Notes: generated by a model from the letters alone, not told the origin. A stretch of 64,000 nt of DNA from an uncultured delta proteobacterium (GCA_963815255.1 CAWFGH010000009.1:63467-127466); one strand, 5' to 3'. Positions 18,973-46,530 are shown, numbered from the stretch's first letter. Program-made: numbers and translations.

Positions 18973-18973
18973 C

Positions 18974-19906: not shown

Positions 19907-20798
19907 GAGCGTCGCGTTTGCGCCGCTGCCTGAAGCTGATGCGGCGCTGCGAAAAGATTACGCACGGTGCGCGTCGATCACGCGCCGCTCCTCGTCCAAC
20001 TTTTACTACGCCTTCATGCTGCTGCCGGCGGAGCGCCGCCACGCGCTGTACTCGGTCTACGCATTTTGCCGCTTCGTCGACGATATCGCCGATGACGACT
20101 CGGTGGGCAAGCCGGTCGAACTGCTCATCCGCTGGCGCGAGGAACTCGAACGCGTGTTCAACGGCTCGCCGACTCATCCGATCTCCCGCGCGCTCGCCCA
20201 CAACGTGCGCCGCTTCGCGATCCCGCGCCGCTACTTCGAGGAGATAATCGACGGCGTCGAGATGGACCTGGAGCGTACTCGGTACGCGACCTTCGAGGAC
20301 CTTCGCCTGTACTGCTACCGCGTTGCCTCGGCGGTCGGTCTCGTGTGTATCGAAATTTTCGGCTATCGCAATCCGCGCACCCGCCAGTACGCAGAAAGTC
20401 TCGGCATCGCATTCCAGCTCACCAACATCATCCGCGACTTGAGCGAAGACGCCGGCCGCGGCCGTATCTATCTGCCGCTTGAGGATCTCGCGCGCTTCGG
20501 CGTGACCGAGGACGAAATCCTGCGCGGCGCCGACACGCTGGAGCTTCGTCGCCTGCTGGAGTACGAGGTCGAGCGAGCACGTTCGTTTTACGCGCAAGCG
20601 GAGCAGGCGCTTGCGGCCGAGGACCGCGCCGCGATGCTGTGTGCGGAAGCGATGCGCTCCATTTATCACGCGCTGCTCGAGCGTATCGCGAGCAAGGGTT
20701 GCGGCGTCGTCGGCCGGCGCTATCGTATTTCCACCCCGCGCAAGCTCTATCTGGTCGGCCGCACATGGGCCGGCACGCGGCTGCGGGCGAGGAACTAG
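19896..20798 (+). CDS. hpnD: Presqualene diphosphate synthase HpnD (squalene/phytoene synthase family)
   Basis: SNFYYAF and FCRFVDDIADD motifs. A probable TTG start overlaps the hpnC 3' end; the start is uncertain by a few codons. Confidence 0.8.
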   Translation: MKPESVAFAPLPEADAALRKDYARCASITRRSSSNFYYAFMLLPAERRHALYSVYAFCRFVDDIADDDSVGKPVELLIRWREELERVFNGSPTHPISRALAHNVRRFAIPRRYFEEIIDGVEMDLERTRYATFEDLRLYCYRVASAVGLVCIEIFGYRNPRTRQYAESLGIAFQLTNIIRDLSEDAGRGRIYLPLEDLARFGVTEDEILRGADTLELRRLLEYEVERARSFYAQAEQALAAEDRAAMLCAEAMRSIYHALLERIASKGCGVVGRRYRISTPRKLYLVGRTWAGTRLRARN

Positions 20799-20804
20799 CC
20801 CGCG

Positions 20805-22181: not shown

Positions 22182-22187
22182 GCGCGT

Positions 22188-23219: not shown

Positions 23220-23238
23220 GGTGGAACCGGGGCCGGCG

Positions 23239-24138
23239 ATGCATCTGCTGTTTTCGACAATCGCTCTGCGGCCGTATGTGTTCGTGTTCCTGGGATTCTA
23301 CCTGGCGATCGCGATCGTCAATTTCGGCTTGCGCACGACGGTTCTGTTCACGGTGCTGACGTACGCGGTGGCATGGGCTTGCGAATGGAGCTCGGTGCGC
23401 AACGGCTTTCCGTTCGGGCTCTATCATTACGTCCAGGCGACGCGCGGCCGCGAAATCTGGGTCGCCGGCGTTCCCTTAATGGACTCGCTCTCGTTCACCT
23501 TTCTTTCCTTTGCGAGCTACACGCTCGCGCTGGCGCTGAGCGCGCCGCTTTACCGGCGCGGGTTTGACCTGCGGACGCTCGACACGTGGGAGCTCAGAAG
23601 CTCGCCGCGAGTCTGGCTGATGGCGGCGCTGTTCATGGTGATGATCGACATGGTGGCCGATCCGCTAAGCGTGCTCGGCGAGCGCTGGTTCCTCGGCAAA
23701 GTTTTCTGGTACGACCCGCCGGGGCCGCATTTCGGCGTACCGATCAGCAACTATCTCGGATGGTATTTCGTCGCGGCGGTAGCCGTGGCGATTTTCCAGT
23801 GGCTCGATCGCCGGCTCAATCGCGGCGGCAGCAAGCCGATGGGCGCAGTGCCGGCGGCGCCGTCGCGCGCGCTTTGGGGACCGGGGTTGTACGCCGGAAT
23901 GGTCGGCTTCGCAATCGTGATGCTGTTTCGTATCGGCGCGCGTGAAATCGGCTGGGCGGGAATTTTTATCTTCCTTCCGCTGCTGGCGTTGGCGCTCCAT
24001 ATCATGACGCGCGCCGAGTGCTGGGGCGACGCTGCCGCCGTCGAGCGCCATCTGGCGGACTTTCCCTTCGAGCAAGCGCTTGCGGTGTGGAGCGCGGCCG
24101 CGCCGCGAACGCTCGTCAAACGGCGCGGCGCCGCGTGA
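23239..24138 (+). CDS. Polytopic membrane protein, carotenoid-biosynthesis-associated (PF04240/DUF422-like) family, common in hopanoid clusters
   Basis: 300-aa protein with about 7 TM helices and the conserved region WFLGKVFWYDPPGPHFGVPISNYLGWYF. Confidence 0.55.
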   Translation: MHLLFSTIALRPYVFVFLGFYLAIAIVNFGLRTTVLFTVLTYAVAWACEWSSVRNGFPFGLYHYVQATRGREIWVAGVPLMDSLSFTFLSFASYTLALALSAPLYRRGFDLRTLDTWELRSSPRVWLMAALFMVMIDMVADPLSVLGERWFLGKVFWYDPPGPHFGVPISNYLGWYFVAAVAVAIFQWLDRRLNRGGSKPMGAVPAAPSRALWGPGLYAGMVGFAIVMLFRIGAREIGWAGIFIFLPLLALALHIMTRAECWGDAAAVERHLADFPFEQALAVWSAAAPRTLVKRRGAA

Positions 24139-26133: not shown

Positions 26134-28707
26134 GAAGGCGCTCCGCTCGCCGCCGACAAGGCTTCCGAATACAGGCTCCCGTCGAACGTGGTGCCGGAGC
26201 GCTACGAAATTAGCCTCACGCCCGACCTCCGCGCGTTCACGTTCGCCGGCGAGGAGAACGTGACGGTGCGCGTCATCACTGCGACCACCGACGTGGTCCT
26301 CAATGCGCTCGAGCTCGAGATTGACCGGGTCAGCGCCGAGCGCGGCAGCGCCATCATCGCCGGCAAGGCGGCGCTTGAGCCTGCGCACGAGCGCGCGCGC
26401 CTGACGTTCGATCGCGCGTTGGAGCCCGGCGAGTGGACGCTGCGCATCGCCTTTCGCGGCATCCTCAACGACAAGCTGCACGGCTTCTATCGCAGCACCT
26501 ACAAGGACGCGCAGGGCAATATGCATCTGGTCGCCAGCACTCAGTTCGAGGCGACCGACGCGCGCCGCGCGATCCCGTGTTGGGACGAGCCGGCGCTGAA
26601 GGCGAGCTTCAAGGTGCGCCTCGTGATCGACGAAGGCCTGAGCGCGTTTTCCAACGCCGGGGTCGAGAGCGAGCGCAGCCTTGGCGGCGGCAAAAAGGCG
26701 ATCGTCTACAAGGAGACGATCAAGATGTCGACCTACCTGCTCGCCTTTATCGTGGGCGAGTTCGAGGCGACCGAGCCTGTCGACGCCGGGACTCCACTGC
26801 GCATCGCGCACGTGCCGGGCAAGCGCGCGTTGACCGCATGGGCGCGCGAGATCGGCGCGTTCTCGCTCAAGTGGTTCGCCAACTATTACGGGTTGCCCTA
26901 TCCGGGCGACAAGCTCGACCTGATCGCGATTCCCGACTTCGCGTCGGGCGCGATGGAGAACCTGGGCGCGATAACGTTCCGCGAGACCGCTTTGCTGATC
27001 GACGAAAAGAGTGCCTCGCGCGCCGAACTCGAGCGCGTGGCCGACGTCGTTGCGCACGAGAACGCGCACATGTGGTTCGGCGACCTGGTCACGATGAAAT
27101 GGTGGAACGGCATCTGGCTCAACGAGGCGTTCGCCACCTTCATGGAGATGCTCGCCGTCGACGCCTGGAAGCCGAAGTGGAAGCGCTGGGAGAGTTTCTC
27201 GGTCTCGCGCACGGCGGCGATGGCGATCGACGGACTGAGCAGTACGCGGCCGATCGAGTTCACCGTGCTGAGCCCCGAGGACGCGCGCGCGATGTTCGAC
27301 GTGCTGACCTACGAGAAGGGCGCTTCGGTGCTGAGGATGCTCGAGCAGTATCTGGGCGCGGAGCGCTTCCGCACCGGCATCGCGGCCTACCTGCGCAAGC
27401 ATCAGTACGCCAACGCCGAGACCGGCGACCTGTGGGACGCGCTCGAGCAGGCTTCCGACGAGCCGGTGCGCAAGTTGATGGACTCGTGGATTTTCCAACC
27501 CGGCTTTCCGATCGTTGAAGCGGCTCTGGGAGCCGACGGCCGCTCGCTGACGGTGCGCCAGCGGCGCTTTTTTTATCTCGGCGAAAACGCCACCACCGCC
27601 GGGCACGATCAGCTCTGGCAGGTGCCGGTGATGGTGCGGGCGAAGACCGAAAAGGGCGTCACGACCCATCGGTTGCTGCTCGGCGGCCGCGAGGCGACGC
27701 TCGATTTGGGCGCACGCGTGGAATGGGCGCTGCTCAATGAAGGCGGCCACGGGTTTTTCCGCGTGCGCTACGCGGCGGATTTGCTCGCGGCGCTGGGCCG
27801 CAACCTGGGCGAGCTCAAGGCGGTGGAGCGCTACGCGCTGGTGAGCGATTCGTGGGCTGCGACGGTTGCCGGGATGTTGCCGCTTAAGGAATTCCTCGCC
27901 ATGCTGCGCGCGATGCGCGACGAGAGCGACCTCAATGTGTGGCGTGCGATGCTTTCGCCGTTGGCGTATCTGGACATGATCGTCAACGACGCCGAGCGTC
28001 CCATGCTGGCCGCGGCGGTGCGCGACATCGTCAGCGGCGCGGCGGCGCGCCTGGGATGGGACCCGCGTCCAGACGAGGACGAACTGGTGCGCCAGTTGCG
28101 CGGCACGCTGTGGGGCTCGATGGGCACGCTCGGCGACGACGGTGAGGTCCAGCGGCGCGCGGCCGAGCTCTATGCGCGCTACCTCAAGGATCCGTCCTCG
28201 GTGGACCGCGACCTGGTGCCGGCGGTGATCGCAATCCTGGCTTACGCCGGCGATCGCTCGCGCTACGAAGAGTTCAAGCAACACTTTAAGTCGGCGCGAA
28301 CCCCGCAAGAGGAGCAGCGCTATCTGTTTTCGCTTGCCAGCTTCCGCCGTCTCGAGCTTTTGCGCGAGACGATGGAGATGACGCTGAATGGCGAGGTGCG
28401 CACCCAGAACGCGCCCTACCTGATGCATGCGTTGCTGCTCAACACCGTCTGCCGGTACGAGGCGTGGGACTTCGTGAAGAAGCACTGGGAGGAGATGATT
28501 CGCAAGTTTCCCGACGCCGCGCTGCCCCGGATGTGCGAGGCGGTCGTCGGGCTGCTCGAGCGCGAGGCCGAGGTGCACGAGTTTTTCCAGGCTCATCGGG
28601 TAAGGCTCGGCGGCAAGATAATCGACCAGCATCTCGAGCGGCTGCGCGTGGCGGTGGCGTTTCGCAAGCGCGAGGGCGCGAATCTGGCCGCGGCGCTCAA
28701 GGGCTGA
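26122..28707 (+). CDS. pepN: Aminopeptidase N (M1 family zinc metallopeptidase)
   Basis: GAMEN exopeptidase motif and HEnaHmWFG...x18...E zinc-binding motif (VAHENAHMWFGDLVTMKWWNGIWLNEAF). 861 aa. Confidence 0.9.
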   Translation: MMDQEGAPLAADKASEYRLPSNVVPERYEISLTPDLRAFTFAGEENVTVRVITATTDVVLNALELEIDRVSAERGSAIIAGKAALEPAHERARLTFDRALEPGEWTLRIAFRGILNDKLHGFYRSTYKDAQGNMHLVASTQFEATDARRAIPCWDEPALKASFKVRLVIDEGLSAFSNAGVESERSLGGGKKAIVYKETIKMSTYLLAFIVGEFEATEPVDAGTPLRIAHVPGKRALTAWAREIGAFSLKWFANYYGLPYPGDKLDLIAIPDFASGAMENLGAITFRETALLIDEKSASRAELERVADVVAHENAHMWFGDLVTMKWWNGIWLNEAFATFMEMLAVDAWKPKWKRWESFSVSRTAAMAIDGLSSTRPIEFTVLSPEDARAMFDVLTYEKGASVLRMLEQYLGAERFRTGIAAYLRKHQYANAETGDLWDALEQASDEPVRKLMDSWIFQPGFPIVEAALGADGRSLTVRQRRFFYLGENATTAGHDQLWQVPVMVRAKTEKGVTTHRLLLGGREATLDLGARVEWALLNEGGHGFFRVRYAADLLAALGRNLGELKAVERYALVSDSWAATVAGMLPLKEFLAMLRAMRDESDLNVWRAMLSPLAYLDMIVNDAERPMLAAAVRDIVSGAAARLGWDPRPDEDELVRQLRGTLWGSMGTLGDDGEVQRRAAELYARYLKDPSSVDRDLVPAVIAILAYAGDRSRYEEFKQHFKSARTPQEEQRYLFSLASFRRLELLRETMEMTLNGEVRTQNAPYLMHALLLNTVCRYEAWDFVKKHWEEMIRKFPDAALPRMCEAVVGLLEREAEVHEFFQAHRVRLGGKIIDQHLERLRVAVAFRKREGANLAAALKG

Positions 28708-28736
28708 CGGGTGGGGATTTTCGGGGGATTCGCCAA

Positions 28737-29732
28737 ATGTTGAGTCCGCGGGTTGCTCTGGTGATACCCGTTTTCAACGGGGCTTCCACAATACGGCGTG
28801 CGATTGAAAGCGCACTTGTCCAGCGGCCGGCTCCTCCGGAGGTCATCGTGATCGACGACGGCTCCACGGACGAAACCCGGCAGATACTGAATGGGTACGC
28901 CGACAGGATAAAAGTGATTCGGCAAAAGCGCCAAGGTCCATCGGCCGCCCGCAATGCCGGAGCAACCGCGGCCTCGGATGCCGCATACGTGTCGTTTCTT
29001 GATGCCGACGACGCATTGCTGCCGGATATGATCTGCACGATGGTGGGGCGGCTCGAATCAGCCCCGGCGTCGGTACTCGCGTTTTCCGATGTAATACCCG
29101 TGGACGATAAGGGACATGCCTTGGACCTATGCTTCATAGACGATTGGTTTGCGCATGCTCCCTCGCTTCAGGAACTCTTGACAACGTATTGGCCCATTCT
29201 GCCCAGCGCCGCGGTGATGAGGCGTAATGCGTGCCTGAACTGCGGAGGATTTAGTGATAAGTTCACGGCGCCCGGGTTTGAAGACCCATATCTCTGGCTA
29301 CGAATGCGCGAGCAGGGCGAGTTCGAATTCGTGGACGAACCGCTGGCGATTTATCGCACTACACCGGCCCTGGAGCGGATGCTGAAATATGCGGGCGGCT
29401 ACAAAATCTTTATGCAGCTGGTGAAGGAGCACTATGGCGTCTCCGGCGAAGGACTGATCAGGGAGATGTCGGCGAAATTCATGCATGCGTGGAATTTCGA
29501 AGCCGCGAAGGCGCTGCGTCTGGGCAATAAGGAGCGCGCCAGACACGCGTTTAAATGCGCGCTGAAGTACGGGCCTTCCACCTCGCGGGTGCGCTCCACT
29601 TCACGATGGCTGCGTACATTTTTGCCCCTGTCGGCGGCTCGTGCACTGAGCGGAAAATTCCTGCGTCGGACCGAAGTCCAAACTCATTGGAACTATTTCT
29701 TCGTCGAGAGACCGAGCCGAATCGTTTTTTAA
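28737..29732 (+). CDS. Family 2 glycosyltransferase (first gene of a lower-GC island)
   Basis: VALVIPVFNGASTIRRAIESAL...VIVIDDGSTDET...FLDADD (DxD) GT-A signature. GC content falls from here to about 32.3 kb. Confidence 0.7.
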   Translation: MLSPRVALVIPVFNGASTIRRAIESALVQRPAPPEVIVIDDGSTDETRQILNGYADRIKVIRQKRQGPSAARNAGATAASDAAYVSFLDADDALLPDMICTMVGRLESAPASVLAFSDVIPVDDKGHALDLCFIDDWFAHAPSLQELLTTYWPILPSAAVMRRNACLNCGGFSDKFTAPGFEDPYLWLRMREQGEFEFVDEPLAIYRTTPALERMLKYAGGYKIFMQLVKEHYGVSGEGLIREMSAKFMHAWNFEAAKALRLGNKERARHAFKCALKYGPSTSRVRSTSRWLRTFLPLSAARALSGKFLRRTEVQTHWNYFFVERPSRIVF

Positions 29733-30447: not shown

Positions 30448-32280
30448 TCACAAATAGAGTTCGGACAGGTCAGGCTGATCGTCAATGAACAGCACATGGC
30501 CGGAGCTGCCCATCGTATAGCTGGTCAGTGCGGTTCTCGCTGCCGCGAGAGGTCCGGCAAGGGCTGTGAGGTCTCGATGATTCCAGCCGTCACCTGCCCC
30601 TTGGGCCGGGTCGTACCACAACTCGTGCAAATGATCGCTCGTATCCACTAAGAAGACATGGCCGGAGTTGCCGAGTGTGTAGCTGGTCAATGCGGTCCCG
30701 GCGGCCGGCACAAGCTCAGCGGAACGGGTGAGGTCGTTGTGACTCCAATCCGGACCGTCCGCTGGGTCATGCCGCAGTTCGTGCAAATGATTGCTCGTAT
30801 CCATGAAGAAAACATGACCGGAGCTGCCCAGAGTGTAACTGGTCAATGCGGTCCCGATGGCCGGTAGAAGCCTGGTGGAAGCGGTGAGGTCGTTGTGATT
30901 CCAGTCCGGACGCTTAGCCGGATCGTATCGCAGTTCATGCAAGTGGTTACTCGTATCAATGAAGACGACGTGGCCGGAGCCGGCCAGAGTATAGCTAGTC
31001 AATGCGGTCCCGGCGGCTGGCAGAAGCTTGGTCGAGGCGGTGAGGTCGCTGTGATTCCATCCGGGACCCTTAGCCGGATCGTACCGAAACTCGTGCAGGT
31101 GGTTACTCTCATCCACGAAGAAAACATGACCGGAGCTGCCCAGAGTATATCCGGTCAATGCGGTCCCGGCGGCGGGCGCAATCCCGGTGGAGGCCGTGAG
31201 GTCGTTATGATTCCAGTCCGGACCCTGGGCCGGGTCATACCATAGTTCCTGCAGATGGTTGCTCGCGTCCACGAAGAAGACGTGGCCGGAGCTGCCCAGA
31301 GAGTAGCTGGTCAATGCGGTCCCGGCGGCCGGCGAAAGTCCGGTGGGCGAAGTGAGATCGTTGTGATTCCAGCCGGGACCCTGAGTCGGGTCGTACCACA
31401 GTTCGTGCAGATGGTCGTTCGCGTCCACGAAGAAGACGTGACCGGAGCTGTTGAAAGAGTAGCTGGTCGTTGCGCTGTTAGCTCCCGGCCGCGGAGCCCC
31501 GGTAGCTGCAGTCAGGTCGTTATGGTGCCAAACCCCAGCAGCATCGTGCTCTTGCCTGACAAGCTCAAGAAAGAATGGAACAAAGTGAAACGTACCTCGC
31601 TTGGTCTCCGTGAGCGGCTTGCGAAGCGCACGCATGGTCGGACGTCTTCCTTCAGGCAAGGGCCTCAGGCCATCGCCGCTATGGTGATTTGCGACGGGCG
31701 TATATCCATAATTCAGCTCGGCATACCGGCAGGTGAGATAGACCGCGTCGGCGAAGGTATCGTCGAATACGACTATGCCTCCGGGCTTGAGCAATTGGTG
31801 AACGAGGACCAGGTCGACGAACACGTTGTCAAAAAGATGGCTGCCGTCAATGAAAGCGAAATCGAAATTTCGCTTCTGCCGTATGAGTTCGGACAGGAAG
31901 AGCTCAGAGGCCTCTTCTTTGATCTCGACGAATTCCTCGAGGCCGGCGTCCCTGACATTTCTTCGACCCGCACCGTGGTATTCGATAGATTCATAAGGGT
32001 CGATCACGAGATGCGCCCCGATCCCTGCACCATTTTCGAGGAGGGCTTCGAGGATAAAAAGAGTAGATAGCCCCGACGCCATCCCGATCTCCACCGTGCG
32101 GGTAGCGCCTTCTGAAATGCAGATATCCCTGATAAACGCGCCGCGGTCGGGCGTGACGCCATCGGGGAAAATGGGACGTTGGCTTCCGTCCTCTCCGCTT
32201 ACGACGCCACGGCTATAGAGCTCTTCGATGAATCTTCGGAGAAGGGTGGCTTCCTGCTTCTTCGGTTTTGTGGCCATCAA
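30448..32280 (-). CDS. Fusion protein: N-terminal class I SAM-dependent methyltransferase (Methyltransf_24/O-MTase-like) plus C-terminal seven ~47-aa tandem repeats resembling PLL/tectonin-type beta-propeller lectin blades
   Basis: The N-terminus has EIGMASGLSTLFILEAL...FAFIDGSHLFDNVFVDL...LKPGGIVVFDD. The C-terminus has 7 copies of W-N-H-N-D-L-T-x-S-T-x-x-x-P-A-A-G-T-A-L-T-S-Y-T-L-G-S-S-G-H-V-F-F-V-D-x-S-N-H-L-H-E-L-W-Y-D-P-A-x-G-P-D. Confidence 0.7.
   Translation of the reverse strand: MMATKPKKQEATLLRRFIEELYSRGVVSGEDGSQRPIFPDGVTPDRGAFIRDICISEGATRTVEIGMASGLSTLFILEALLENGAGIGAHLVIDPYESIEYHGAGRRNVRDAGLEEFVEIKEEASELFLSELIRQKRNFDFAFIDGSHLFDNVFVDLVLVHQLLKPGGIVVFDDTFADAVYLTCRYAELNYGYTPVANHHSGDGLRPLPEGRRPTMRALRKPLTETKRGTFHFVPFFLELVRQEHDAAGVWHHNDLTAATGAPRPGANSATTSYSFNSSGHVFFVDANDHLHELWYDPTQGPGWNHNDLTSPTGLSPAAGTALTSYSLGSSGHVFFVDASNHLQELWYDPAQGPDWNHNDLTASTGIAPAAGTALTGYTLGSSGHVFFVDESNHLHEFRYDPAKGPGWNHSDLTASTKLLPAAGTALTSYTLAGSGHVVFIDTSNHLHELRYDPAKRPDWNHNDLTASTRLLPAIGTALTSYTLGSSGHVFFMDTSNHLHELRHDPADGPDWSHNDLTRSAELVPAAGTALTSYTLGNSGHVFLVDTSDHLHELWYDPAQGAGDGWNHRDLTALAGPLAAARTALTSYTMGSSGHVLFIDDQPDLSELYL
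30470..31500 (-). repeat. About 141-bp nucleotide-level tandem repeats (about 7 copies, ~80-85% identical) encoding the propeller blades
   Basis: The recurring plus-strand string cagttcgtgcaaatgatcgctcgtatcca(c/t)gaagaa(g/a)acatggccggagctgcccagagt(a/g)tagctggtcaatgcggtcccggcggccgg repeats every ~141 nt. Confidence 0.7.
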
Positions 32281-37258: not shown

Positions 37259-38018
37259 ATGAAACTCAAAGACAAGGCGGTGCTGATAACCGGCGCGGGC
37301 TCGGGGCTGGGGCGTGAGATGGCGCTCGTGTTCACGCGCGAGGGCGCAAAAATCGGCGTCAACGATCTGCGGCCCGAGACGGCGCAAAACGTAGTGACCG
37401 AGATTGAACGCGCGGGAGGGCGCGCGGTGCGGCTGGTCGCCGACGTCACGGACAGCGCGGCGGTCAAAAAGATATTCGCCGATTTCGTGGCAGCGTTTGG
37501 CACGATAGACGTCCTGGTCAACAACGCCGGCATCGGACGTGTGCGCCCCGGCAGCGAGGCGACGCCCACCGTCGACAAGACCGACGAGGACTGGCACAAG
37601 ATGATCGCCGACGCATCTCGATGCGACTTTCTACTGCACGCGCGAGGCGCTCAAGGTGATGATCGCGAAACAATCCGGCCGCATTATCAACCTGGGTTCG
37701 ATCGTCGGGCTCACCGGAATCGAGCTGGCGGCCGATTACGGCGCGGCCAAGGGTGGAATAATCTCATTCACCAAGTGCGTGGCGCGCGAGGTCGTCCGCC
37801 ACGGTATCCTGGTCAACTGTATCGCGCCCGGTTTCATCGAAACCCCGATGACCGCGCCGCTCTCGCCCGAGCTGCGCCAGGTAGTGATGGCGAGGACGCC
37901 CGCGGGCCGTTTCGGTGAGCCACGCGACATCGCGGCCGCGGCGCTATACCTTGCCTGCGAGGATTCGTCGTTTATGGTCGGCCAGGTGATCAGCCCCAAC
38001 GGGGGCTACGTGATCTGA
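37259..38018 (+). pseudogene. Short-chain dehydrogenase/reductase, FabG-like 3-oxoacyl-ACP reductase, with an apparent +1 frameshift near 37615
   Basis: The N-terminal TGAGSGLGREMA...NNAGI is in frame 2. The continuation HLDATFYCTREALKVMIAKQSGRIINLGS...YGAAKGG...PGFIETPM is in frame 0. Confidence 0.6.
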
Positions 38019-38037: not shown

Positions 38038-39588
38038 ATGAATCCGCGACCCGCAATTGAGCGCCTCGCCGGCGTGATGGTGCCGCTGTTTTCGTTGCGC
38101 ACGCGCAGCGACGCGGGAATCGGCGACATCGCCGCGCTCGACGCCATGACTGGCCTCGTATCGTCGATGGGCGATCGCGCGATCCTGCTCCTGCCAATCG
38201 ACGAAACCTCGCCCGGCGAGGCCAGTCCTTACAGCGCGCTCAGCGTGTTTGCGATCGATCCGATATATATCGGACTCGACGGACTCGCGGGCGTCATTCC
38301 TGGCGACGTGGAGCGGGTGCGCCGCGAACTCGCGCACGTGCCACTCAGCGATCGCTTGACGATCCGCGCCGCGCGGCTCGAATTGCTCGAGGCCGCGTTT
38401 CGCCATTTCACGGCGCGCGGCGACGAGCGCGCGGTTGTCACGGACTTCGCCGCGCGCCATCGCGGATGGCTCGACGATTATGCGCTCTTTCGCGCGCTGA
38501 AGGATCGCTTCGATCTCGCGCCATGGGAGGACTGGCCCGACGAGCTGCGCCGGCGCGAAACCGCTGCGCTCGATCGCGCGAAAGCCGAACTCGCGCCGGC
38601 GATCGACAAGTACATGTATTGGCAATTCCTGGCGCATCGCCAATGGACGGAAGTTCACGCCCACGCGCGTGCGCGCGGCGTGATGCTCGGCGGTGACCTG
38701 GCGTTTTCGCCGGCGCACGACAGCGCCGAAGTATGGGCCAACCAGGAATTGTTCGATTTCAATCGCACTGTGGGTGCGCCGCCCGACGCCTTCAATCCGG
38801 AGGGGCAGAAATGGGGTCTGCCCTCGCCGCGATGGGATCGGATTCGCGCGGACGGATTCGCGTTGCTGAGAAAACGGATCCGTCACGCACGCGAGCTTTA
38901 CGATTTCATCCGGATCGATCATGTGGTCGGGCTCTACCGGACCTTTTCATTCGGCCTGGTGCCCGGGGCCAAAGGCGGGTTCTCGCCGGCGGCGGAGCCT
39001 GAGCAGCGCGCGCTGGGCGAAGCGGTGCTCGGCGCGATACTCGAGGAGGCGGGCACGACGATCGTGGTTGCCGAGGACCTTGGCGTGATACCGCCCTTCG
39101 TCCGGGCCTCGCTGAGCGCGCTCGGCGTGCCGGGTTACAAAGTGATGCGCTGGGAGAAAATCAACGACGGCACACCTGCCGAGGCGTTCGTCTCGCCTGC
39201 GGATTATCCCGAAATCTCGCTCGCCACGACCAGCACCCATGACACCGATACGCTGGCCGAATGGTGGGACACCGCGCCGGCGGACGAACGCGCGCGCATG
39301 CTCGCGCTGCTGATGCCTGCACCGCGGCGACACGCAATGCGCGCATCAGGTTTCGAGCAGATGCGCGACGCGATGCTGGCGGCGCTGTATGCGTCGCCGT
39401 CGCGGATGGTGATCATCCCGATGCAGGATCTTTTTGGATGGCGCGAGCGGATAAACCTCCCCGGCACCGTCGGACCCGCGAACTGGTCGTGGCGGTTGCC
39501 GCATGCGATCGAAGACATCGGCCACGACCCCGCGTCGTCGGCGCGGGTCGCCCAATTGCGTGCGATGGCCATCCAGGCCGGCAGATAA
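38038..39588 (+). CDS. malQ: 4-alpha-glucanotransferase (amylomaltase, GH77)
   Basis: VMVPLFSLRTRSDAGIGD N-terminus, with IDHVVGLYR, GAPPDAFNPEGQKWGLP and ATTSTHDTDTL catalytic-region motifs. Confidence 0.88.
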   Translation: MNPRPAIERLAGVMVPLFSLRTRSDAGIGDIAALDAMTGLVSSMGDRAILLLPIDETSPGEASPYSALSVFAIDPIYIGLDGLAGVIPGDVERVRRELAHVPLSDRLTIRAARLELLEAAFRHFTARGDERAVVTDFAARHRGWLDDYALFRALKDRFDLAPWEDWPDELRRRETAALDRAKAELAPAIDKYMYWQFLAHRQWTEVHAHARARGVMLGGDLAFSPAHDSAEVWANQELFDFNRTVGAPPDAFNPEGQKWGLPSPRWDRIRADGFALLRKRIRHARELYDFIRIDHVVGLYRTFSFGLVPGAKGGFSPAAEPEQRALGEAVLGAILEEAGTTIVVAEDLGVIPPFVRASLSALGVPGYKVMRWEKINDGTPAEAFVSPADYPEISLATTSTHDTDTLAEWWDTAPADERARMLALLMPAPRRHAMRASGFEQMRDAMLAALYASPSRMVIIPMQDLFGWRERINLPGTVGPANWSWRLPHAIEDIGHDPASSARVAQLRAMAIQAGR

Positions 39589-39719: not shown

Positions 39720-41105
39720 GTGGAATCGCGAAGGGGGAATCGAGCCGTCGTATCGACTGATCACAGGATCTCCACACCCGTGACATCCGAGCGCAGCCTG
39801 CTGCTTCGCGCGGCGATGCTGGTACCGTTGTGGACGGCGGTTGTAATCGGCCTGGTGGTACTGATCGCCGCGCTGCCCAGCCGCGCCCGAAAATGGGACT
39901 ACAGCATCTATTACAGTTCGGCGCTGGCGATGCGTCAGGGGATGAATCCCTACACCACTGACCTGACGCCGCTTGCGCGCTCGCTCGGGTTCGAGCTGGA
40001 CAAGATCAATCACGCGACCGATCCGCCGACCTTCGTGATGTGCTTCGTGCCGGTGACGCTGCTGGCGCCGCGGCCCGGATTTTATGTCTGGACCGCGCTC
40101 AACGGGTTCTCGTTTTTGCTCGCGTTATTTCTGCTTTTTTGCTGGACTCCGGGTCTCGATCGCGATGTCGCCCTGGCGATCGCCGCTCTGACGATCCTTT
40201 TTCCGCCGGTGATCGATCACCTGGTCTGGGGCCAGAACAAAATGCTGGTCCTTCTGATGTTCGTGCTGATGCTGCGATGGATGGAGCGCGGAAAGGACGC
40301 ATCGGCCGGACTGATCCTGGCCTTCGCAAGCCTGCTACGCGTTTTTCCGCTGCTGATGGTTGGCTATCTGATCCTGATGAAGCGATGGCGCGTTCTTGCG
40401 TACACGATGGTCGGGCTGATCGCCGGAGGGCTGGTGACCGTTGCGCTGGTGGGAGTAGGCCACTCCATCAGCTTTCTCCTTGCTTCCGGCTATCTGACCC
40501 AGCAATGGGCGCAGGCGTTGCCGGGCAATATAGCAATCCCAACGACGGTGTCGCGGATGTTCTGGTATTTCTTCGGCGTTCATCTCGGAGTGACGCTCGA
40601 TTGGGCGAGAAGAGCCGCCTCGTGGGCGGCCGAACTGGCGCTCCTTGGCTTGACCGTCAAAGCTACAGTCGCGAGACCTTCGCGTGACGATCCTGACGGC
40701 CGCTTGTTCAGCCTGTGGATCATGACCGCTATCCTCGTCTCGCCGACTTCATGGTTTTACTACCTGGTACTCCTCACGATTCCGATGGTGAAGCTGAGCG
40801 CGGCCGCGGCCAACAACCGGACCAGCGCGCGCGCGCTGTGGGCCGGAGTCGCGTGCTACACCCTCGCATGGCTCTATTTCACCCTGGTCGACATGCATTC
40901 GCCCGAACTCGCGTTGCATCCGGACGCCCTGGTGTGGCGGGTCGGCGCTTCGCCGGTGGGGCTGCTCGCCTATCTCTCGCTCTATTGGTTCGCTGTCGAT
41001 CCCGCTGCGGTTCAGCAGCTGTCGCAGTCGACGGCCTCGCAAGCGGCGGATTCAGGTTCGGCGGATTCGATCGACGAGGTACAACCGGCTCGCACTGCGG
41101 TCTGA
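39720..41105 (+). CDS. Polytopic membrane glycosyltransferase, GT87/DUF2029 family (polyprenyl-phospho-sugar dependent)
   Basis: About 12 TM helices with a conserved N-terminal loop (YYSSALAMRQGMNPY). It is a paralogue of the 44056-45417 product. The start may be the internal Met at 39816. Confidence 0.6.
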   Translation: MESRRGNRAVVSTDHRISTPVTSERSLLLRAAMLVPLWTAVVIGLVVLIAALPSRARKWDYSIYYSSALAMRQGMNPYTTDLTPLARSLGFELDKINHATDPPTFVMCFVPVTLLAPRPGFYVWTALNGFSFLLALFLLFCWTPGLDRDVALAIAALTILFPPVIDHLVWGQNKMLVLLMFVLMLRWMERGKDASAGLILAFASLLRVFPLLMVGYLILMKRWRVLAYTMVGLIAGGLVTVALVGVGHSISFLLASGYLTQQWAQALPGNIAIPTTVSRMFWYFFGVHLGVTLDWARRAASWAAELALLGLTVKATVARPSRDDPDGRLFSLWIMTAILVSPTSWFYYLVLLTIPMVKLSAAAANNRTSARALWAGVACYTLAWLYFTLVDMHSPELALHPDALVWRVGASPVGLLAYLSLYWFAVDPAAVQQLSQSTASQAADSGSADSIDEVQPARTAV

Positions 41106-41307
41106 CGATCGTCCGATCGTAAACGGACTCGACCGCCCGCTGCTGGATCGCATTGCGAGCCAGTTGATGGCATGTTAACCGGAATCGTTTGCAACTAAAT
41201 CAAGGCTGGACGGACAGCCGGAACTTTCGACCGGCGTCGGCATAGCAAGACTAAGCCGCCGCGCGAGGGCGCGGCGGCCGGAGGCGAGCGGAACACGCAC
41301 AGGTAAT

Positions 41308-42801
41308 ATGGAGGCGCTACAGCAGAATTCAGTGGTTGAGACCGATGGTGCGGCGCCGCGCGCGACCAACGGGGAAGCATTGGCGGCCGCGCGTTATCGC
41401 GCGGAGCGCATCAGGTTCTGGAACGGTTACGTCCGCAAACCGGCCAGTGCCGCCTACTATCGGCGGCTTGCGGAGGTTTACCGTTACCTCGTGCCGGCGG
41501 GGAGCCGGGTACTGGAACTCGGCTGTGGCACCGGTGATCTGCTCGCGGCGCTCGAGCCCTCGATGGGCGTCGGCGTCGATTTTGCGCCGGAGATGCTCAA
41601 GCGGGCCGCGCGAAACCATCCGCAACTCCGCTTCGTGCAGGGCGACATCGATCAGCTCAGCCTGAATACCAGGTTTGACTACATCATCCTTTCTGACCTG
41701 ATTAACGATCTTTGGGATGTGCAAACGACGATCGAGCGGGTCGCGTCGGTATGCACGCCGGCGACTCGCGTGATCATCAACACTTACAGCCGGATGTGGG
41801 AGCTGCCGCTCAGGATGGCCGGGCGTATGAACCTGGCCAATTCGGCCTTGAACCAGAACTGGCTGACGCTGGCGGATCTCGACAACATGCTGGCGCTTGG
41901 CGGCTTCGAGGTCGTTCGCCAGTGGCAGGAGGTGCTCCTGCCGCTCGCGCTGCCGCTGCTTGCGCCGCTTTTCAATCGCTACGTGGTGAAACTCTGGCCC
42001 TTTCGGCATCTGGCGCTCACCAATTTCATCGTCGCCCGCCTCGCACCGGAAGCCGCGACCGAGGCGCGCGGCCCCGAGCCCGAGCCGGTGGTAAGCGTGA
42101 TCGTCCCGGCCCGCAATGAGGCCGGCAATATCGAGAACGTGGTGCAGCGCGTGCCCGAGATGGGCGCCGGCACCGAGATCGTTTTTGTCGAAGGCCATTC
42201 GCGCGACGACACTTACGCAGCGATCGAAGCGGCAATCGCGCGCCATCCGGAGCGCCGCATGCAACTGTTGCGGCAAAGCGGCGCGGGCAAGGGCGACGCG
42301 GTACGCCTGGGTTTTGCAGAGGCCAGGGGCGGGGTGCTGATGATCCTCGACGCGGACCTGACGGTTGCGCCCGAGGATTTGCCGCGCTTTTATCGCGCCC
42401 TGCGTTCGGGCCGCGGCGAATTCATCAACGGCGTCCGCTTCGTCTACCCGATGGAGAAGCAGGCGATGCGCTTTCTGAATTTCCTCGGGAACAAGTTTTT
42501 CAGCCTCGGCTTCTCCTGGCTGCTCGGCCAGAACGTCAAGGACACACTATGCGGGACCAAGGTGCTGAGCCGGGCCGACTACGATACGATCGCCGCCAAT
42601 CGCGCCTACTTCGGCGACTTCGATCCGTTCGGCGACTTCGACCTCATCTTCGGCGCGGCCAAGCTTGACCTCAAGATCGTCGATATGCCGGTGCGCTATC
42701 ATGATCGAACTTACGGCCAGACCAATATCCAGCGCTGGCGGCATGGGCTTTTGCTGCTGCGGATGTTCGGTTTCGCGCTGAGGCGGTTGAAATTCGTATG
42801 A
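41308..42801 (+). CDS. Bifunctional class I SAM methyltransferase / GT2 polyprenyl-phosphate glycosyltransferase (DPM1-like)
   Basis: The N-terminus has VLELGCGTGDLL (SAM motif I). The C-terminus has VSVIVPARNEAGNI...ILDADLT (DxD) and is DPM/GtrB-like. Confidence 0.75.
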   Translation: MEALQQNSVVETDGAAPRATNGEALAAARYRAERIRFWNGYVRKPASAAYYRRLAEVYRYLVPAGSRVLELGCGTGDLLAALEPSMGVGVDFAPEMLKRAARNHPQLRFVQGDIDQLSLNTRFDYIILSDLINDLWDVQTTIERVASVCTPATRVIINTYSRMWELPLRMAGRMNLANSALNQNWLTLADLDNMLALGGFEVVRQWQEVLLPLALPLLAPLFNRYVVKLWPFRHLALTNFIVARLAPEAATEARGPEPEPVVSVIVPARNEAGNIENVVQRVPEMGAGTEIVFVEGHSRDDTYAAIEAAIARHPERRMQLLRQSGAGKGDAVRLGFAEARGGVLMILDADLTVAPEDLPRFYRALRSGRGEFINGVRFVYPMEKQAMRFLNFLGNKFFSLGFSWLLGQNVKDTLCGTKVLSRADYDTIAANRAYFGDFDPFGDFDLIFGAAKLDLKIVDMPVRYHDRTYGQTNIQRWRHGLLLLRMFGFALRRLKFV

Positions 42802-42946
42802 GAATTTATGCGTGGCCGGACCCTTCAGGCCCGGGCCGCATTCCTATAAAAGATTTATATCGGCTAGCGAATTTACCGGGCGCCTGACCTTGACCGGCGG
42901 GCGTCGAAGCCGGTTCGGAGTTGGCGACAATGCGGGAGGGCGGTAA

Positions 42947-43939
<993 letters not shown>

Positions 43940-44055
43940 GGGTTCCATCGGGGTGGCCCCGTCCGGGAGGACGCGCGGCGCTTGATCGATCGCTCGAGAT
44001 TGACTGATCGCTCGGCCTGAGTGCGTGGCGGCGGTGTGTCCACGCGAGGTGGGGA

Positions 44056-45417
44056 ATGGGGGGAGAGTCGATGAGCGTCGCAGAGCCACACGCGGAGCCC
44101 GCGAAGGACTACCCGCGTGCAGACTACCCGCGTCCTATAACGCCTAAGGCCAGTGCCGCGCATCGGCCGCCTCTCTCCATCGATGGAATCCTCGCGATCC
44201 TGCGCCATCCCCTGATGGTGGTATTTCTCTCTCTGGCCGCGCTGATCCAGGTCTACAGAGTGTATTCGGCACTACCCGGTCGAATTCACGAGGAAGACTT
44301 CGCCGACTACTACGCCGCCGCAACGATCATGCGGCAGGGGCAGAATCCTTATCACACCTCTCTGGTACCGGTCGGCGCACAGCTTGGATTACATACCAAA
44401 ACCTTCAAGCACGATGAGATCATACCGGAGACGCCCGCCTTTTTACTCTGTCTGAAAACGCTGGGAGCGTTGCCGCTTACCCGCGCTTACTGGACCTGGA
44501 TCGCGATTAATTTTGCGGCGCTGCTAGCGTCCTTCTACCTGTTGTTGGGCCCTGGAACTGGCATCCGGCCAGTGGATGCCTGCGTGATGATCGCTCTGGC
44601 CCTGATCTATCCACCGCTCATCGATCTCTTCCTGACCGCGCAGAGCCAGGTGCTCGTGATACTGGGGCTGGCGTTGAGTGTCCGATGGCTTGCGAGAGGA
44701 CGCGACGGACTCGCCGGCCTGATGCTGGCGGCGTTGACCCTTCTGCGCGGCTATCCGGCTCTGATGGGTCTTTACCTGTTGCTCACGCGCAGGTGGCGCG
44801 CGCTCGCTTTCGTGGCCATGGGTGGTGCGATTGGACTTGTAGTGTGTGCGGCCCTGATGGGATGGCACGCTCTTATCGATTTTCCGCTGGGTCTTGCGGC
44901 GGCCGGCGGAGATCGCGAACTGTACAAATTGGGCTGGAACACCGCGCCCGCATCGCTTCTTTGGCGCCTGTGCCTATATCTCAACGGATGGCATCTCGGA
45001 CCCGCCGGCGATCGCTTCGGCCGCGCTTTGGGCTACGGCGCTTCCCTGGCTTTTATGGCGTTCACCTTGAAGGCCACGCTCAAGCGCGGCGCTGGTCCCG
45101 ATCGCGATTGGCGCCTGTTCGCTCTATGGGTAGTTACGTCGATCGAGGTTCTGCCCGTCTCATGGTTGAACTACAATACTCTGTTGTTCGTTCCGTTCGC
45201 TTTGATCGCTTCGGCGGGGGCGCGCAACCGGGTCAGTGAGCGCGCGATATGGGCTGCGATGCTGAGCTACTTTCTGAGCGTGTTTGCATTCGGCGGCTTG
45301 CTCTTACTCGATCCGCGGCTTCCGATCGTGTTCGTGGTATTGGTGGGAGAGAGCAAGACAGTTGCGGTGATGACGGGTTACCTGTCAGCGTACTGGTTCG
45401 CCGTCGACGAGACTTGA
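44056..45417 (+). CDS. Polytopic membrane glycosyltransferase, GT87/DUF2029 family (paralogue of 39720-41105)
   Basis: Same architecture and conserved loop (YYAAATIMRQGQNPY) as the upstream paralogue. Confidence 0.6.
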   Translation: MGGESMSVAEPHAEPAKDYPRADYPRPITPKASAAHRPPLSIDGILAILRHPLMVVFLSLAALIQVYRVYSALPGRIHEEDFADYYAAATIMRQGQNPYHTSLVPVGAQLGLHTKTFKHDEIIPETPAFLLCLKTLGALPLTRAYWTWIAINFAALLASFYLLLGPGTGIRPVDACVMIALALIYPPLIDLFLTAQSQVLVILGLALSVRWLARGRDGLAGLMLAALTLLRGYPALMGLYLLLTRRWRALAFVAMGGAIGLVVCAALMGWHALIDFPLGLAAAGGDRELYKLGWNTAPASLLWRLCLYLNGWHLGPAGDRFGRALGYGASLAFMAFTLKATLKRGAGPDRDWRLFALWVVTSIEVLPVSWLNYNTLLFVPFALIASAGARNRVSERAIWAAMLSYFLSVFAFGGLLLLDPRLPIVFVVLVGESKTVAVMTGYLSAYWFAVDET

Positions 45418-45456
45418 ATCATTAGTCATTACACGAACACCGCTGGTACATCCCTT

Positions 45457-46530
45457 GTGGCCGCGGGCGCGCTGGTCTTCTGGGCATTCATCACGCTCGG
45501 CACCTCTGGCTGCGGCGCGGCGCCGCCGCAGGCCGCGATGAATCAGTTTGGCAACCGGGTCGAGGCCGGCCGCGCCACCACCACGCCCGCCTTTGCCCAT
45601 CCCTCGTCCATTCGCGGAGGCATCCACGCTCCATACGCGATCGCGGCCGGCGCCGGCGGTGTCTGGTTCACCGAGTACAGCGCTCCGATGCTGGGGTTGA
45701 TGGAGCTCAGCGGCACGTTCAAGCAAGTGGAACTGGACCAGGACGGCTTTCCTGAGCGTCTGACTATCGCGCGCGACGGTGCAGTGTGGTTCACCGATCC
45801 CCAGGGCGGCCGTATCGGACGCATCTTTCCCGACAACAGCAAGGCGGACTACTACTTCGTGCCGACGCCCAGGAGCGGGCCCGCCGGTATCGCGGCCGCT
45901 CGCGACGGCTCCATCTGGTTCACCGAGCACGCCGCCGACCAGATCGCGATCTTCGTTCCGCCCGGGGCCGACCGTTCCTCTCCCGGGAATCACGGCTTCA
46001 TGGAGTTTCCGCTGCCGCTGGGCGGTGGGCCGGCAGGGATCGTCGCCGCCGCCGACGGCAGCCTGTGGTTCGCCGAAAACTCAGGCAATCGGATCGGCCG
46101 AATCACACTGGCGCAAAACGCCGACCAGCCCGTGATAACCGAATACACGCTGCCGGTCCCGCATAGCCATCCCAACGGCGTCGCGGTGGGCGGCGACGGC
46201 GATGTCTATTTCACCGAGCTCGCGGCCAGCCGGATCGGCAGGATCACGCCGCAGGGGCAAATGTCCGAGTTGGTGTTGCCGGTCAATGGCCCCGCGCTCG
46301 ACATCGTCGCCGGCGGCGAGGGAACTATCTGGATCACCGTGCCCAAGTCGCATGCGATCTGCCGTCTTCGTCCCGGCGCTCCGATAACCGCCTTCTTTCT
46401 GCCCGAAACCGCCATCCCCGCTTTCATCACCAGCGGCGCCGACGGCAATCTCTACTTCACCGAGCCCACGGGAAAGATCGCGCGCTTCACGCCGGTCGGC
46501 GTGATGACCGAGGTCGAGCTGGCCGACTAG
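45457..46530 (+). CDS. Secreted/lipoprotein beta-propeller protein of the Vgb (virginiamycin B lyase)-like family
   Basis: Signal peptide ending LGTSGC; repeated blades containing G-x-(V/I)WFTE (VWFTEY, VWFTDP, IWFTEH, LWFAEN, VYFTEL, LYFTEP). Confidence 0.55.
   Translation: MAAGALVFWAFITLGTSGCGAAPPQAAMNQFGNRVEAGRATTTPAFAHPSSIRGGIHAPYAIAAGAGGVWFTEYSAPMLGLMELSGTFKQVELDQDGFPERLTIARDGAVWFTDPQGGRIGRIFPDNSKADYYFVPTPRSGPAGIAAARDGSIWFTEHAADQIAIFVPPGADRSSPGNHGFMEFPLPLGGGPAGIVAAADGSLWFAENSGNRIGRITLAQNADQPVITEYTLPVPHSHPNGVAVGGDGDVYFTELAASRIGRITPQGQMSELVLPVNGPALDIVAGGEGTIWITVPKSHAICRLRPGAPITAFFLPETAIPAFITSGADGNLYFTEPTGKIARFTPVGVMTEVELAD

Follow-up and report, generated by a model that had tools for sequence, protein, structure and literature searches.

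A putative envelope glycosylation island in Candidatus Binataceae built around a widespread methyltransferase-glycosyltransferase fusion

We analyzed a five-gene island at positions 39720-46530 of a 64-kb stretch of DNA (hereafter the window, meaning the whole stretch) from a soil bacterium belonging to Candidatus Binataceae. Overall, we favor the interpretation that the island serves envelope glycosylation in the manner of a three-component extracytoplasmic system, using a donor that is most likely supplied by an Fcl-like enzyme and may be methylated. We are fairly confident that a lipid-phosphate sugar synthase feeds GT-C enzymes here. That the donor is a 6-deoxyhexose or fucose is proposed with slightly more doubt than confidence, and methylation of the donor itself is a more tentative suggestion still.

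Gene content and setting of the island

All five genes lie on the + strand, in the order GT87-A, methyltransferase-GT2 fusion, Fcl-like gene, GT87-B and Vgb-like propeller gene; the gene set that a sequence-only reading had described at this site proved to be real, with the coordinates it had given. GT87-A (39720-41105) and its accessory paralogue GT87-B (44056-45417) encode predicted PimE-like GT-C membrane glycosyltransferases, scoring 86.5 and 65.8 bits against PF09594, for which the Pfam gathering threshold is 25 bits. Gene calls in other assemblies point to later starts, by about 20 codons for GT87-A and about 5 codons for GT87-B. The fusion gene (41308-42801) comprises an N-terminal class I SAM-methyltransferase domain (residues ~1-245, 41308-42042) and a C-terminal GT2 domain of the DPM1/GtrB/ArnC type (residues ~255-497, 42070-42801), the latter assigned by profile and fold; Methyltransf_31 matched residues 65-185 and Glycos_transf_2 residues 263-392. 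The Fcl-like gene (42950-43939) encodes an extended SDR whose PDB sequence matches and catalytic residues indicate an NDP-4-keto-6-deoxyhexose 3,5-epimerase/4-reductase.

The island is flanked on the left by a gene for a MalQ-like GH77 4-alpha-glucanotransferase (38038-39588, + strand; PF02446, 413 bits). The right end is formed by the gene for a beta-propeller of the Vgb_lyase family (45457-46530; PF24684, 219 bits), which scored far below the cut-offs of the NCBIfam streptogramin lyase equivalogs. Its N-terminus carries a hydrophobic segment ending in Cys, and the protein is probably a lipoprotein or secreted. From 36 to 50 kb, GT87-A and GT87-B were the only ORFs with at least three hydrophobic segments, and no flippase gene of the GtrA, SMR or MATE type was found in the island.

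The fusion protein and the GT87 paralogues

The GT2 half of the fusion was matched to the same three enzymes by profile and by predicted fold, in agreement with its earlier description as a DPM1-like GT2 fused to a SAM methyltransferase. In profile searches, the Dol-P-Man synthase of P. furiosus (5mlz, 1.2e-17) was followed by ArnC and GtrB, and the best Foldseek matches were ArnC (9asc, 4.7e-13, 240 columns, rmsd 3.5), DPMS and GtrB. The DXD motif (D348-A-D350) was invariant. The best NCBIfam matches, AglJ and Dol-P-hexose transferase, both fell under their cut-offs (97 against 325 bits for the AglJ equivalog). Together, sequence and model predict a polyprenyl-phosphate glycosyltransferase of the DPM1/ArnC/GtrB type. 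The C-terminal transmembrane helices of GtrB, ArnC and P. furiosus DPMS are absent from this half, as neither a hydropathy scan nor the AF2 model contained any transmembrane helix; the model instead places amphipathic helices (389-406 and 478-493) after the catalytic core. Eukaryotic DPM1 has the same arrangement, without C-terminal transmembrane helices.

In the methyltransferase half, matches to Methyltransf_31, _25, _23 and _11 spanned residues 52-204, and the SAM motif ELGCGTGD was invariant in 60 homologues, as were many residues beyond it. A hydrophobic loop occupies residues 209-227. Because the predicted fold resembled only generic class I methyltransferases, the substrate cannot be read from homology.

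GT87-A and GT87-B share 36% identity over 424 residues (E = 4e-71) and, judged by sequence, are true paralogues. To our knowledge, all characterized GT87 enzymes use polyprenyl-phosphate mannose, and this is the donor of Rv2181. It is also the donor of PimE, in which the catalytic Asp D58 lies at the tip of JM1 and is hydrogen-bonded to Tyr Y62 four residues on, and in which K195, W319 and H322, together with Q163, bind phosphate, although an H322A mutant keeps partial activity (PMC12041525). The AF2 model of GT87-A (pLDDT 88.7) had PimE as its best match (9dm5, E 1.3e-6, TM-scores 0.60/0.70), ahead of other GT-C enzymes, and the GT87 family profile detected PimE at 4.7e-7; identity to PimE is just 21%. 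Across 34-38 homologues, including both paralogues, D60 and Y65 of GT87-A were invariant and Y64 nearly so. D60 and Y64 are the equivalents of PimE D58 and Y62, a match made on the place of the motif since residue 91 is where the HMM alignment to PimE begins, and GT87-B carries the same invariant Asp/Tyr motif (EDFADYY). In the alignment of GT87-A to 9dm5, Q172 corresponds to Q163, R207 conservatively to K195 and W345 to W319; both paralogues keep the Asp/Tyr and appear to keep the Gln, Lys-to-Arg and Trp positions, whereas H322 is replaced by Tyr. The PimE-like fold of GT87-A and the catalytic Asp/Tyr of both paralogues thus support the earlier proposal that the GT87 proteins are polyprenyl-phosphate-sugar glycosyltransferases, as predicted from sequence and model.

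Conservation and gene neighborhoods

The trio of GT87, fusion and fcl-like gene was retained in L005, L092/L093 and L094, with fusion proteins 88% and 81% identical in Binataceae relatives and 64% identical in a more distant lineage. GT87-B was present in L005 and missing from L092/L093, where the gene order was otherwise the same. In Binatia this trio, with GT87-A as its GT87 member, is the conserved core, and GT87-B is an accessory copy outside it; the expected co-conservation in relatives held for the trio and not for the second paralogue. GH77 is the conserved left flank: it immediately precedes GT87 in the window and in five related Binatia loci (L005, L087, L089, L090 and L092). The Vgb-like gene is directly downstream of the module, as had been noted, and does not belong to it: it keeps its position in L089 and L092 although the island content there differs, and is part of the conserved right flank. 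At the same chromosomal site, related Binatia carry a GtrB-type GT2 and a methyltransferase as individual genes, together with GT87 and further large membrane proteins, an arrangement which supports the view that the two halves of the fusion serve a single pathway.

More widely, the fusion was found in at least 593 species genomes from many phyla, at about 60% identity. Our literature search returned no study of this fusion and no biochemical data on any member of the family. Among 69 loci spread over many phyla, 51 encoded a large polytopic membrane protein within two genes of the fusion gene; such proteins made up 31.6% of the genes at up to two positions away, compared with 7.9% at five or more positions (Fisher p = 2.7e-13). 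Among 79 of these neighboring large membrane proteins, 30 matched PMT_2 and 10 matched PMT. Of the 34 loci with a small downstream gene, 27 had a standalone methyltransferase after the fusion gene. About 20 of 80 loci, belonging to several independent lineages, had gmd/fcl-family genes within 10 kb. The fusion is thus significantly linked to GT-C-type proteins, a second methyltransferase and gmd/fcl-family genes. Small membrane ORFs, the candidates for flippases, were rare near the fusion gene across the 80 loci.

This recurrence bears on whether the island genes share a pathway at all. The island sits within an unrelated housekeeping block (GH77, SDR, DUF72, GST and G6PD) whose order is conserved in Binatia, and consensus scans gave no operon-level support, with promoter-like and terminator-like sites at chance frequency; both observations would suit genes that are neighbors through inherited order alone. 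However, GT2, methyltransferase and GT-C genes, often with an fcl-family gene, recur in many phyla with differing gene orders and GT-C families, and the GT2 and methyltransferase are joined in one protein. We therefore regard mere inherited order as extremely improbable.

The same neighborhoods argue against a chain-terminating role for the fusion. Glycan-capping methyltransferase-glycosyltransferase fusions have precedent in WsaE and WbdD, the latter mentioned in PMC11127046. By analogy, the fusion could be a cytoplasmic chain modifier or terminator that adds a sugar to a growing Und-PP-linked polysaccharide and a methyl cap before ABC export, leaving the GT87 proteins to an unrelated step. 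Anaerolineales and L094 do have ABC-2/ABC transporter genes close to the fusion gene, but no ABC transporter (ABC-2/Wzt) or other polysaccharide-assembly gene was found beside the module in the window. Moreover, over about 240 aligned positions, reaching beyond the catalytic core, the GT2 half specifically fits polyprenyl-phosphate glycosyltransferases and not GT2s that extend chains. GT-C enzymes, whose donors are lipid-phosphate sugars, are enriched among the neighbors. This role appears very improbable.

The Fcl-like protein and the nature of the sugar

The 18 best PDB sequence matches of the Fcl-like protein were all named GDP-L-fucose synthase or synthetase (8du0, 1.5e-66; E. coli 1bws, 2.5e-58). 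Its residues T115, C117, Y144, K148 and H187 align with S107, C109, Y136, K140 and H179 of 1bws, so that the Ser/Thr, Cys, Tyr, Lys and His of the E. coli Gmd/Fcl (WcaG) GDP-L-fucose pathway are kept; we take Ser107, Tyr136 and Lys140 to be the catalytic triad of the E. coli enzyme and Cys109 and His179 its epimerization pair. The earlier assignment to fcl is upheld by these five catalytic residues; yet the protein missed the cut-off of the NCBIfam Fcl equivalog NF047922 (287.6 against 500 bits), a model on which the canonical Fcl proteins encoded beside the fusion gene in L084 and L008 scored 509 and 472 bits. Unlike the E. coli enzyme, it appears from its sequence to belong to a clade that is divergent within the GDP-L-fucose synthase family. 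Orthologues near the fusion gene in Anaerolineales were 60-64% identical, and an orthologue in L006 was 75% identical; the cross-phylum identity of 60-64% is unusually high, like that of the fusion protein. The SDR adjoining the fcl-like gene in Anaerolineales does not have the catalytic Glu that characterizes 4,6-dehydratases. No gmd was found in the whole 64-kb window by phmmer and tblastn with two canonical Gmd queries, which bears out its reported absence and contrasts with the E. coli pathway.

These results can be set against a classical polyprenyl-phosphate mannose system, in which the GT2 half would make the donor from GDP-mannose, like DPM1 and Ppm1, and the GT87 proteins would be mannosyltransferases like PimE and Rv2181. 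The methyltransferase would then act on mannose or the finished glycan, and the fcl-like gene would serve some other glycan or a distinct fucosylation step in the cytoplasm. Such a system would account for a Dol-P-Man synthase heading the sequence matches of the GT2 half, for the mannosyltransferase PimE being the closest structure to GT87-A, for the absence of gmd from the window and for the roughly three quarters of fusion loci (~60 of 80) without fcl or gmd within 10 kb. We nevertheless consider it unlikely, since gmd/fcl-family genes are strongly enriched beside the fusion in several independent lineages, with a canonical gmd-fcl pair directly abutting it in L084 and L008, and since identity across phyla is as unusually high in the fcl-like clade as in the fusion protein. 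In addition, extended SDRs were the sole recurrent sugar-nucleotide function among 134 soluble neighbors, and GDP-mannose synthesis genes did not recur among the fusion neighbors. The canonical gmd-fcl pairs, extra methyltransferases and GT-C proteins beside the fusion in other phyla lend support to the fucose and methylation ideas of the sequence-only reading.

Proposed pathway and relation to known systems

Under the interpretation that we favor, the GT2 half would transfer a sugar from a nucleotide sugar to polyprenyl phosphate at the cytoplasmic face of the membrane. The Fcl-like enzyme most likely provides the GDP-6-deoxy-L-hexose donor, probably GDP-L-fucose, from a 4-keto intermediate that would be made by a Gmd encoded elsewhere in the genome; a search of the literature turned up no description of lipid-phosphate fucose as a donor. 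Also weighing against this interpretation are the absence of a flippase gene from the island and of gmd from the window, the sub-threshold Fcl score, the many fusion loci without fcl or gmd nearby, the mannose donors of the characterized GT87 enzymes, the generic methyltransferase fold and the Glu missing from the Anaerolineales SDR. The fused SAM-methyltransferase would most likely O-methylate the sugar, probably once it is lipid-linked. The lipid-linked sugar would cross the membrane via a flippase encoded outside the island, and the two PimE-like GT87 enzymes would transfer it to one or two envelope acceptors. We infer the lipid acceptor, sugar identity, methylation target and final acceptor of this scheme; the domain identities, predicted folds, conserved catalytic residues and gene linkage are observed.

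Several characterized systems share parts of this scheme. In mycobacteria, Ppm1 and PimE/Rv2181, which act in PIM, LM and LAM mannosylation, pair a DPM1-like synthase with GT87 enzymes as in the island. However, the host here is a member of Binatia and not an actinobacterium, an fcl-like gene lies inside the module, and the synthase is fused to a methyltransferase, whereas that of Ppm1 is fused to an Lnt-like domain. The pathway of ArnC, the undecaprenyl-phosphate L-Ara4FN synthase, and ArnT, the lipid A transferase, likewise combines a sugar-nucleotide-modifying enzyme, a lipid-phosphate sugar synthase (ArnC, the top Foldseek match of the GT2 half) and a GT-C enzyme. ArnC differs in having two C-terminal transmembrane helices and in using a UDP-sugar, and the window contains no other Arn pathway genes. 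In Haloferax, AglJ, the best, though far sub-threshold, NCBIfam match of the GT2 half, is a Dol-P hexose transferase, and AglP is a methyltransferase acting on the dolichol-linked glycan. These are two separate proteins of an archaeal N-glycosylation pathway with the AglB oligosaccharyltransferase, in which the sugar is methylated while lipid-linked.

The three-component systems, namely GtrA/GtrB/GtrC of Shigella and Salmonella and the pentofuranose systems (Kelly et al. 2024, PMC11127046), have in common with the island a GT2 synthase and an extracytoplasmic GT-C enzyme. In contrast to them, the island has no flippase gene, its synthase has no transmembrane helices and carries a fused SAM-methyltransferase, its GT-C enzymes belong to GT87, and its donor is probably a GDP-derived 6-deoxyhexose instead of UDP-Glc, UDP-Gal or a PRPP-derived pentose. 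We read the island as a probable variant of these three-component systems that lacks a flippase gene, with a methylated, lipid-linked 6-deoxyhexose as its putative donor. Systems of this kind are already known, and the central fused enzyme of the island, on which we found no published study, is very widespread.

Gene content and predicted enzymes of the island

Five ORFs in the same orientation occupy positions 39720-46530 of the window (+ strand), and their Pfam assignments reproduced the gene layout that the sequence-only reading had described as a glycosylation module. GT87-A (39720-41105; PF09594, 86.5 bits) is followed by a fusion gene (41308-42801) encoding a class I SAM-methyltransferase (residues 52-204) and a GT2 domain (residues 263-392), an fcl-like extended SDR (42950-43939; Epimerase, 189 bits; GDP_Man_Dehyd, 104 bits), GT87-B (44056-45417; PF09594, 65.8 bits), and a Vgb_lyase-family propeller gene (45457-46530). 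Because all five co-oriented ORFs received Pfam assignments, and GT87-A and GT87-B share 36% identity across 424 residues, the observation of two GT87/DUF2029 paralogues on either side of the fusion was confirmed. The nearest genome locus and the names under which identical proteins are deposited assign the window to Candidatus Binataceae. In promoter and terminator scans, sites were no more common than expected by chance, and the window contained no Rfam or tRNA matches.

Searching the PDB with the GT87-A sequence yielded no match; PimE, the mycobacterial GT87 mannosyltransferase, was reached only through a family profile and the predicted fold. The profile (34 sequences) reached M. abscessus PimE (9dm5) at 4.7e-7, and the AlphaFold2 model of GT87-A (pLDDT 88.7) was closest to PimE (TM 0.60/0.70), followed by PIG-M, ArnT, ALG3, and ALG6, all of which are GT-C enzymes, in agreement with the claim that GT87 proteins are membrane glycosyltransferases. 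In PimE, the catalytic base D58 is held by Y62, and Q163, K195, W319, and H322 surround the phosphate (PMC12041525). In our GT87 alignments (34 and 38 sequences), D60 and Y65 were invariant, and Y64, Q172, and W345 were nearly invariant. PimE K195 corresponds to R207 in GT87-A, which was invariant in the larger alignment (38 sequences) and nearly invariant in the smaller one (34 sequences), and the position of H322 is occupied by Tyr. A lone distant GT87 homologue in the comparison locus L085 (8001-10481; 39% identical to GT87-A) adjoins a polyprenyl synthase gene and genes for F420 biosynthesis, and its surroundings contain no fusion gene. In L087, the gene 3' of a tandem GT87 pair was tested as a candidate fusion gene and proved not to be one.

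A 14-homologue profile of the fusion's GT2 half matched the P. furiosus dolichyl-phosphate mannose synthase best (5mlz, 1.2e-17), followed by ArnC and GtrB. When the AlphaFold2 model of the fusion (pLDDT 81.9, pTM 0.82) was compared with the PDB, its C-terminal half matched ArnC (4.7e-13, 240 columns, rmsd 3.5), dolichyl-phosphate mannose synthase, and GtrB, and its N-terminal half matched only generic class I methyltransferases. The profile and the predicted fold thus bear out the proposed DPM1-like GT2 fused to a methyltransferase. Across 60 homologues, the DXD motif (D348-A-D350) and the SAM motif were invariant or nearly so. Among NCBIfam models, AglJ and Dol-P-hexose transferase scored best, both far below their cut-offs. 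No transmembrane helix was found in the fusion protein; two amphipathic helices lie beyond the catalytic core, the methyltransferase half contains a hydrophobic loop, and we read the protein, as modelled, as a putative peripheral, DPM1-like enzyme. An unlikely alternative is a cytoplasmic capping enzyme resembling WsaE or WbdD, against which the ArnC and GtrB matches count.

A possible fucose link and the variable island in Binatia

The assignment of the SDR as a GDP-fucose synthase held in part. All 18 of its best PDB sequence matches carry the name GDP-L-fucose synthase or synthetase, and S107, C109, Y136, K140, and H179 of the E. coli enzyme (1bws) align with T115, C117, Y144, K148, and H187. 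However, the protein scored 288 bits against a cut-off of 500 for the NCBIfam Fcl equivalog, and it was therefore placed in a divergent clade. As previously claimed, no gmd was found within the window. The only other extended SDR there (22188-23219) sits inside a hopanoid/squalene cluster (15705-24138, +) with genes for squalene-hopene cyclase, Dxr, two SQS_PSY proteins (HpnC/HpnD-like), an amine oxidase (HpnE-like), an HpnA-like SDR, and Caroten_synth.

In other genomes, about 20 of 80 fusion loci had gmd/fcl-family genes in the retrieved flanks of 10 kb. The fusion gene of a Solibacteraceae locus (L084) is directly followed by canonical gmd (525 bits, cut-off 415) and canonical fcl (509 bits, cut-off 500), and in L008 a canonical gmd/fcl pair (584 and 472 bits, respectively) immediately precedes the fusion gene. 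The divergent fcl-like clade is present instead in Binataceae, L006, and 13 Anaerolineales loci, with 60-88% identity to the window protein. A less likely alternative is a classical mannose system, with an unrelated role for the fcl-like gene; the matches to dolichyl-phosphate mannose synthase and PimE speak for it, and the adjacency of gmd and fcl to the fusion speaks against it.

Anaerolineales loci (e.g., L043, 5100-9850, - strand) have a conserved divergent block upstream of the fusion gene, comprising a MarR/HTH_24 regulator, a GalE-like SDR, the fcl-like gene, and an ABC-2 permease with an ABC ATPase. The SDR adjoining the fcl-like gene was rejected as a 4,6-dehydratase, as the catalytic Glu is missing (STYSNYG), and it scored only about 90-114 bits against the GalE and RmlB models. 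In the window, a gene at 30448-32280 (- strand), at a distance of about 8 kb from the module with the fcl-like gene, encodes a 610-residue protein without a signal peptide, with an N-terminal O-methyltransferase (Methyltransf_24, Methyltransf_3) and a C-terminal half of six repeats matching the propeller of the fungal fucose-specific lectin (PF07938, E 1e-14). This protein may be relevant to any methyl-fucose chemistry of the organism. A separate GT2 gene (28464-29732, +; Glycos_transf_2, 109 bits) is located between a peptidase M1 gene and this methyltransferase-lectin gene.

Within Binatia, the island has conserved flanks, with GH77 on the left and Vgb-like, SDR, DUF72, GST, VanZ, and G6PD genes on the right. 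Between them, the window and L005 (fusion 88% identical) carry GT87-A, fusion, fcl-like, and GT87-B genes, L092 and L093 (fusion 81% identical) carry the first three without GT87-B, and in L094 (fusion 64% identical) GT87, fusion, and fcl-like genes are again present. The core therefore consists of GT87-A, the fusion, and the fcl-like gene. Co-conservation in relatives applies to this core but not to GT87-B, which is accessory, and the Vgb-like gene, although directly downstream as described, is part of the flank. With these adjustments, the overall interpretation offered by the sequence-only reading is supported.

L089 carries a GT87 gene (64% identical to GT87-A), a 629-residue protein, a standalone methyltransferase, and a GtrB-type GT2 with GT2_TM_C, and L090 and L091 contain other mixtures of GT87, DUF6311, PMT_2, methyltransferases, and GtrB-type GT2. 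Because sister genomes carry separate GT2 and methyltransferase genes, the fusion is read as two steps of one pathway. These alternative cassettes, at the same site or in GT87 neighbourhoods elsewhere (L089 10433-13944, L090 10529-19407, L091 805-13868), include 629-803-residue proteins without a Pfam match. The GH77/Vgb-flanked site behaves as a variable glycosylation island. A further, unlikely alternative is that the island genes are adjacent merely through inherited gene order; the conserved flanks speak for it, and the recurrence of the gene combination in other phyla speaks against it.

An SDR gene upstream of GH77 (37259-38018, +) is split by an extra A at 37611 relative to L001 (8349-9795), an ENA assembly roughly 98% identical to the window, and GT87-A is frameshifted in L001 and intact in the window. 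Each difference is probably an indel error of assembly or a pseudogene at strain level.

The fusion family across phyla

A protein search with the fusion returned at least 8000 matches, and the best 120 of these all contained both domains at 61% identity or higher. Scanning one genome per species identified at least 593 fusion loci, those listed being from Anaerolineales, Acidobacteriota, Syntrophales and other Desulfobacterota, Planctomycetota, Gemmatimonadales, and Binatia. Chloroflexota are among the hosts of the family, and its cultured carriers include Levilinea saccharolytica (KIBI-1), Anaerolinea thermophila, Acidobacteriaceae KBS 83, and Desulfatirhabdium butyrativorans.

Searching 80 fusion loci with the window GT87s (BLASTP and phmmer) detected GT87 in Binataceae only, and neighbours were therefore surveyed by hydropathy and Pfam. 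In the best 80 of the at least 593 loci, greedy gene calling placed the fusion gene in 69, and 51 of these had a polytopic membrane protein (at least 6 hydrophobic segments and at least 380 residues) within two genes. Such proteins accounted for 79 of 250 genes within two positions of the fusion, compared to 26 of 331 at five or more positions (Fisher p = 2.7e-13). Pfam assigned 30 of the 79 to PMT_2 and 10 to PMT, and about 18 contained TPR repeats (TMTC-like architecture). Among the 134 other soluble neighbours, extended SDR was the sole recurrent sugar-nucleotide function. A standalone class I methyltransferase lies directly 3' of the fusion gene on the same strand in 27 loci from other phyla (among L007-L080; e.g., L071 11396-12043 and L025 11403-12170), suggesting a second methylation step without an adjacent counterpart in the window. 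As candidate close kin of the fused domain, these methyltransferases were rejected, since they showed only generic class I similarity (best E 1e-8).

Proposed pathway and its implications

The known systems closest to the island include three-component glycosylation systems (PMC11127046), mycobacterial Ppm1 with PimE, and ArnC with ArnT. In contrast to all of these, the synthase here is fused to a methyltransferase and lacks transmembrane helices, the module carries no flippase gene, and GT87 is found beyond the actinobacteria and in linkage with gmd/fcl genes. Literature searches on the fusion, on a lipid-phosphate fucose donor, and on GT87/DUF2029 outside actinobacteria found nothing relevant, and no description of a polyprenyl-phosphate O-methyl-fucose or methylated 6-deoxyhexose donor class was found.

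At the cytoplasmic membrane face, the fusion would charge polyprenyl phosphate with a sugar, the donor probably being GDP-6-deoxy-L-hexose, the predicted product of the fcl-like enzyme, and the fused methyltransferase probably methylates the sugar derived from it. A flippase would then export the lipid-linked sugar (no GtrA-like ORF is present in the island), and the GT87 enzymes would pass it to envelope acceptors. In this scheme, the analysis establishes which domains are present, their predicted folds, the catalytic residues, and the gene linkage; the lipid substrate, the sugar, the methylation target, and the acceptor are inferred. Extending this to the whole family, we tentatively suggest, as a possibility we hold with low confidence, that the fusion represents a large, uncharacterised, unusually conserved family making polyprenyl-phosphate O-methyl-fucose or another methylated 6-deoxyhexose, which diverse GT-C enzymes use on envelope glycans or proteins. 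The GT-C partners would be GT87 in the window and PMT_2 or TMTC-like proteins with TPR domains elsewhere. Because the family has cultured carriers, this idea is directly testable.

Extracytoplasmic glycosylation from lipid-phosphate sugars affects antigenicity, antibiotic resistance, and envelope integrity, and the donors known to date comprise Glc, Gal, GlcNAc, Man, Ara4N, GalA, and pentofuranoses. Should the suggestion hold, a methylated 6-deoxyhexose would join them, through a fusion with about 60% identity across phyla and a consistent position beside GT-C enzymes. It would also provide a function for thousands of genes labelled merely "SAM-dependent methyltransferase" or "glycosyltransferase", in a family found in abundant, little-studied soil and sediment lineages.
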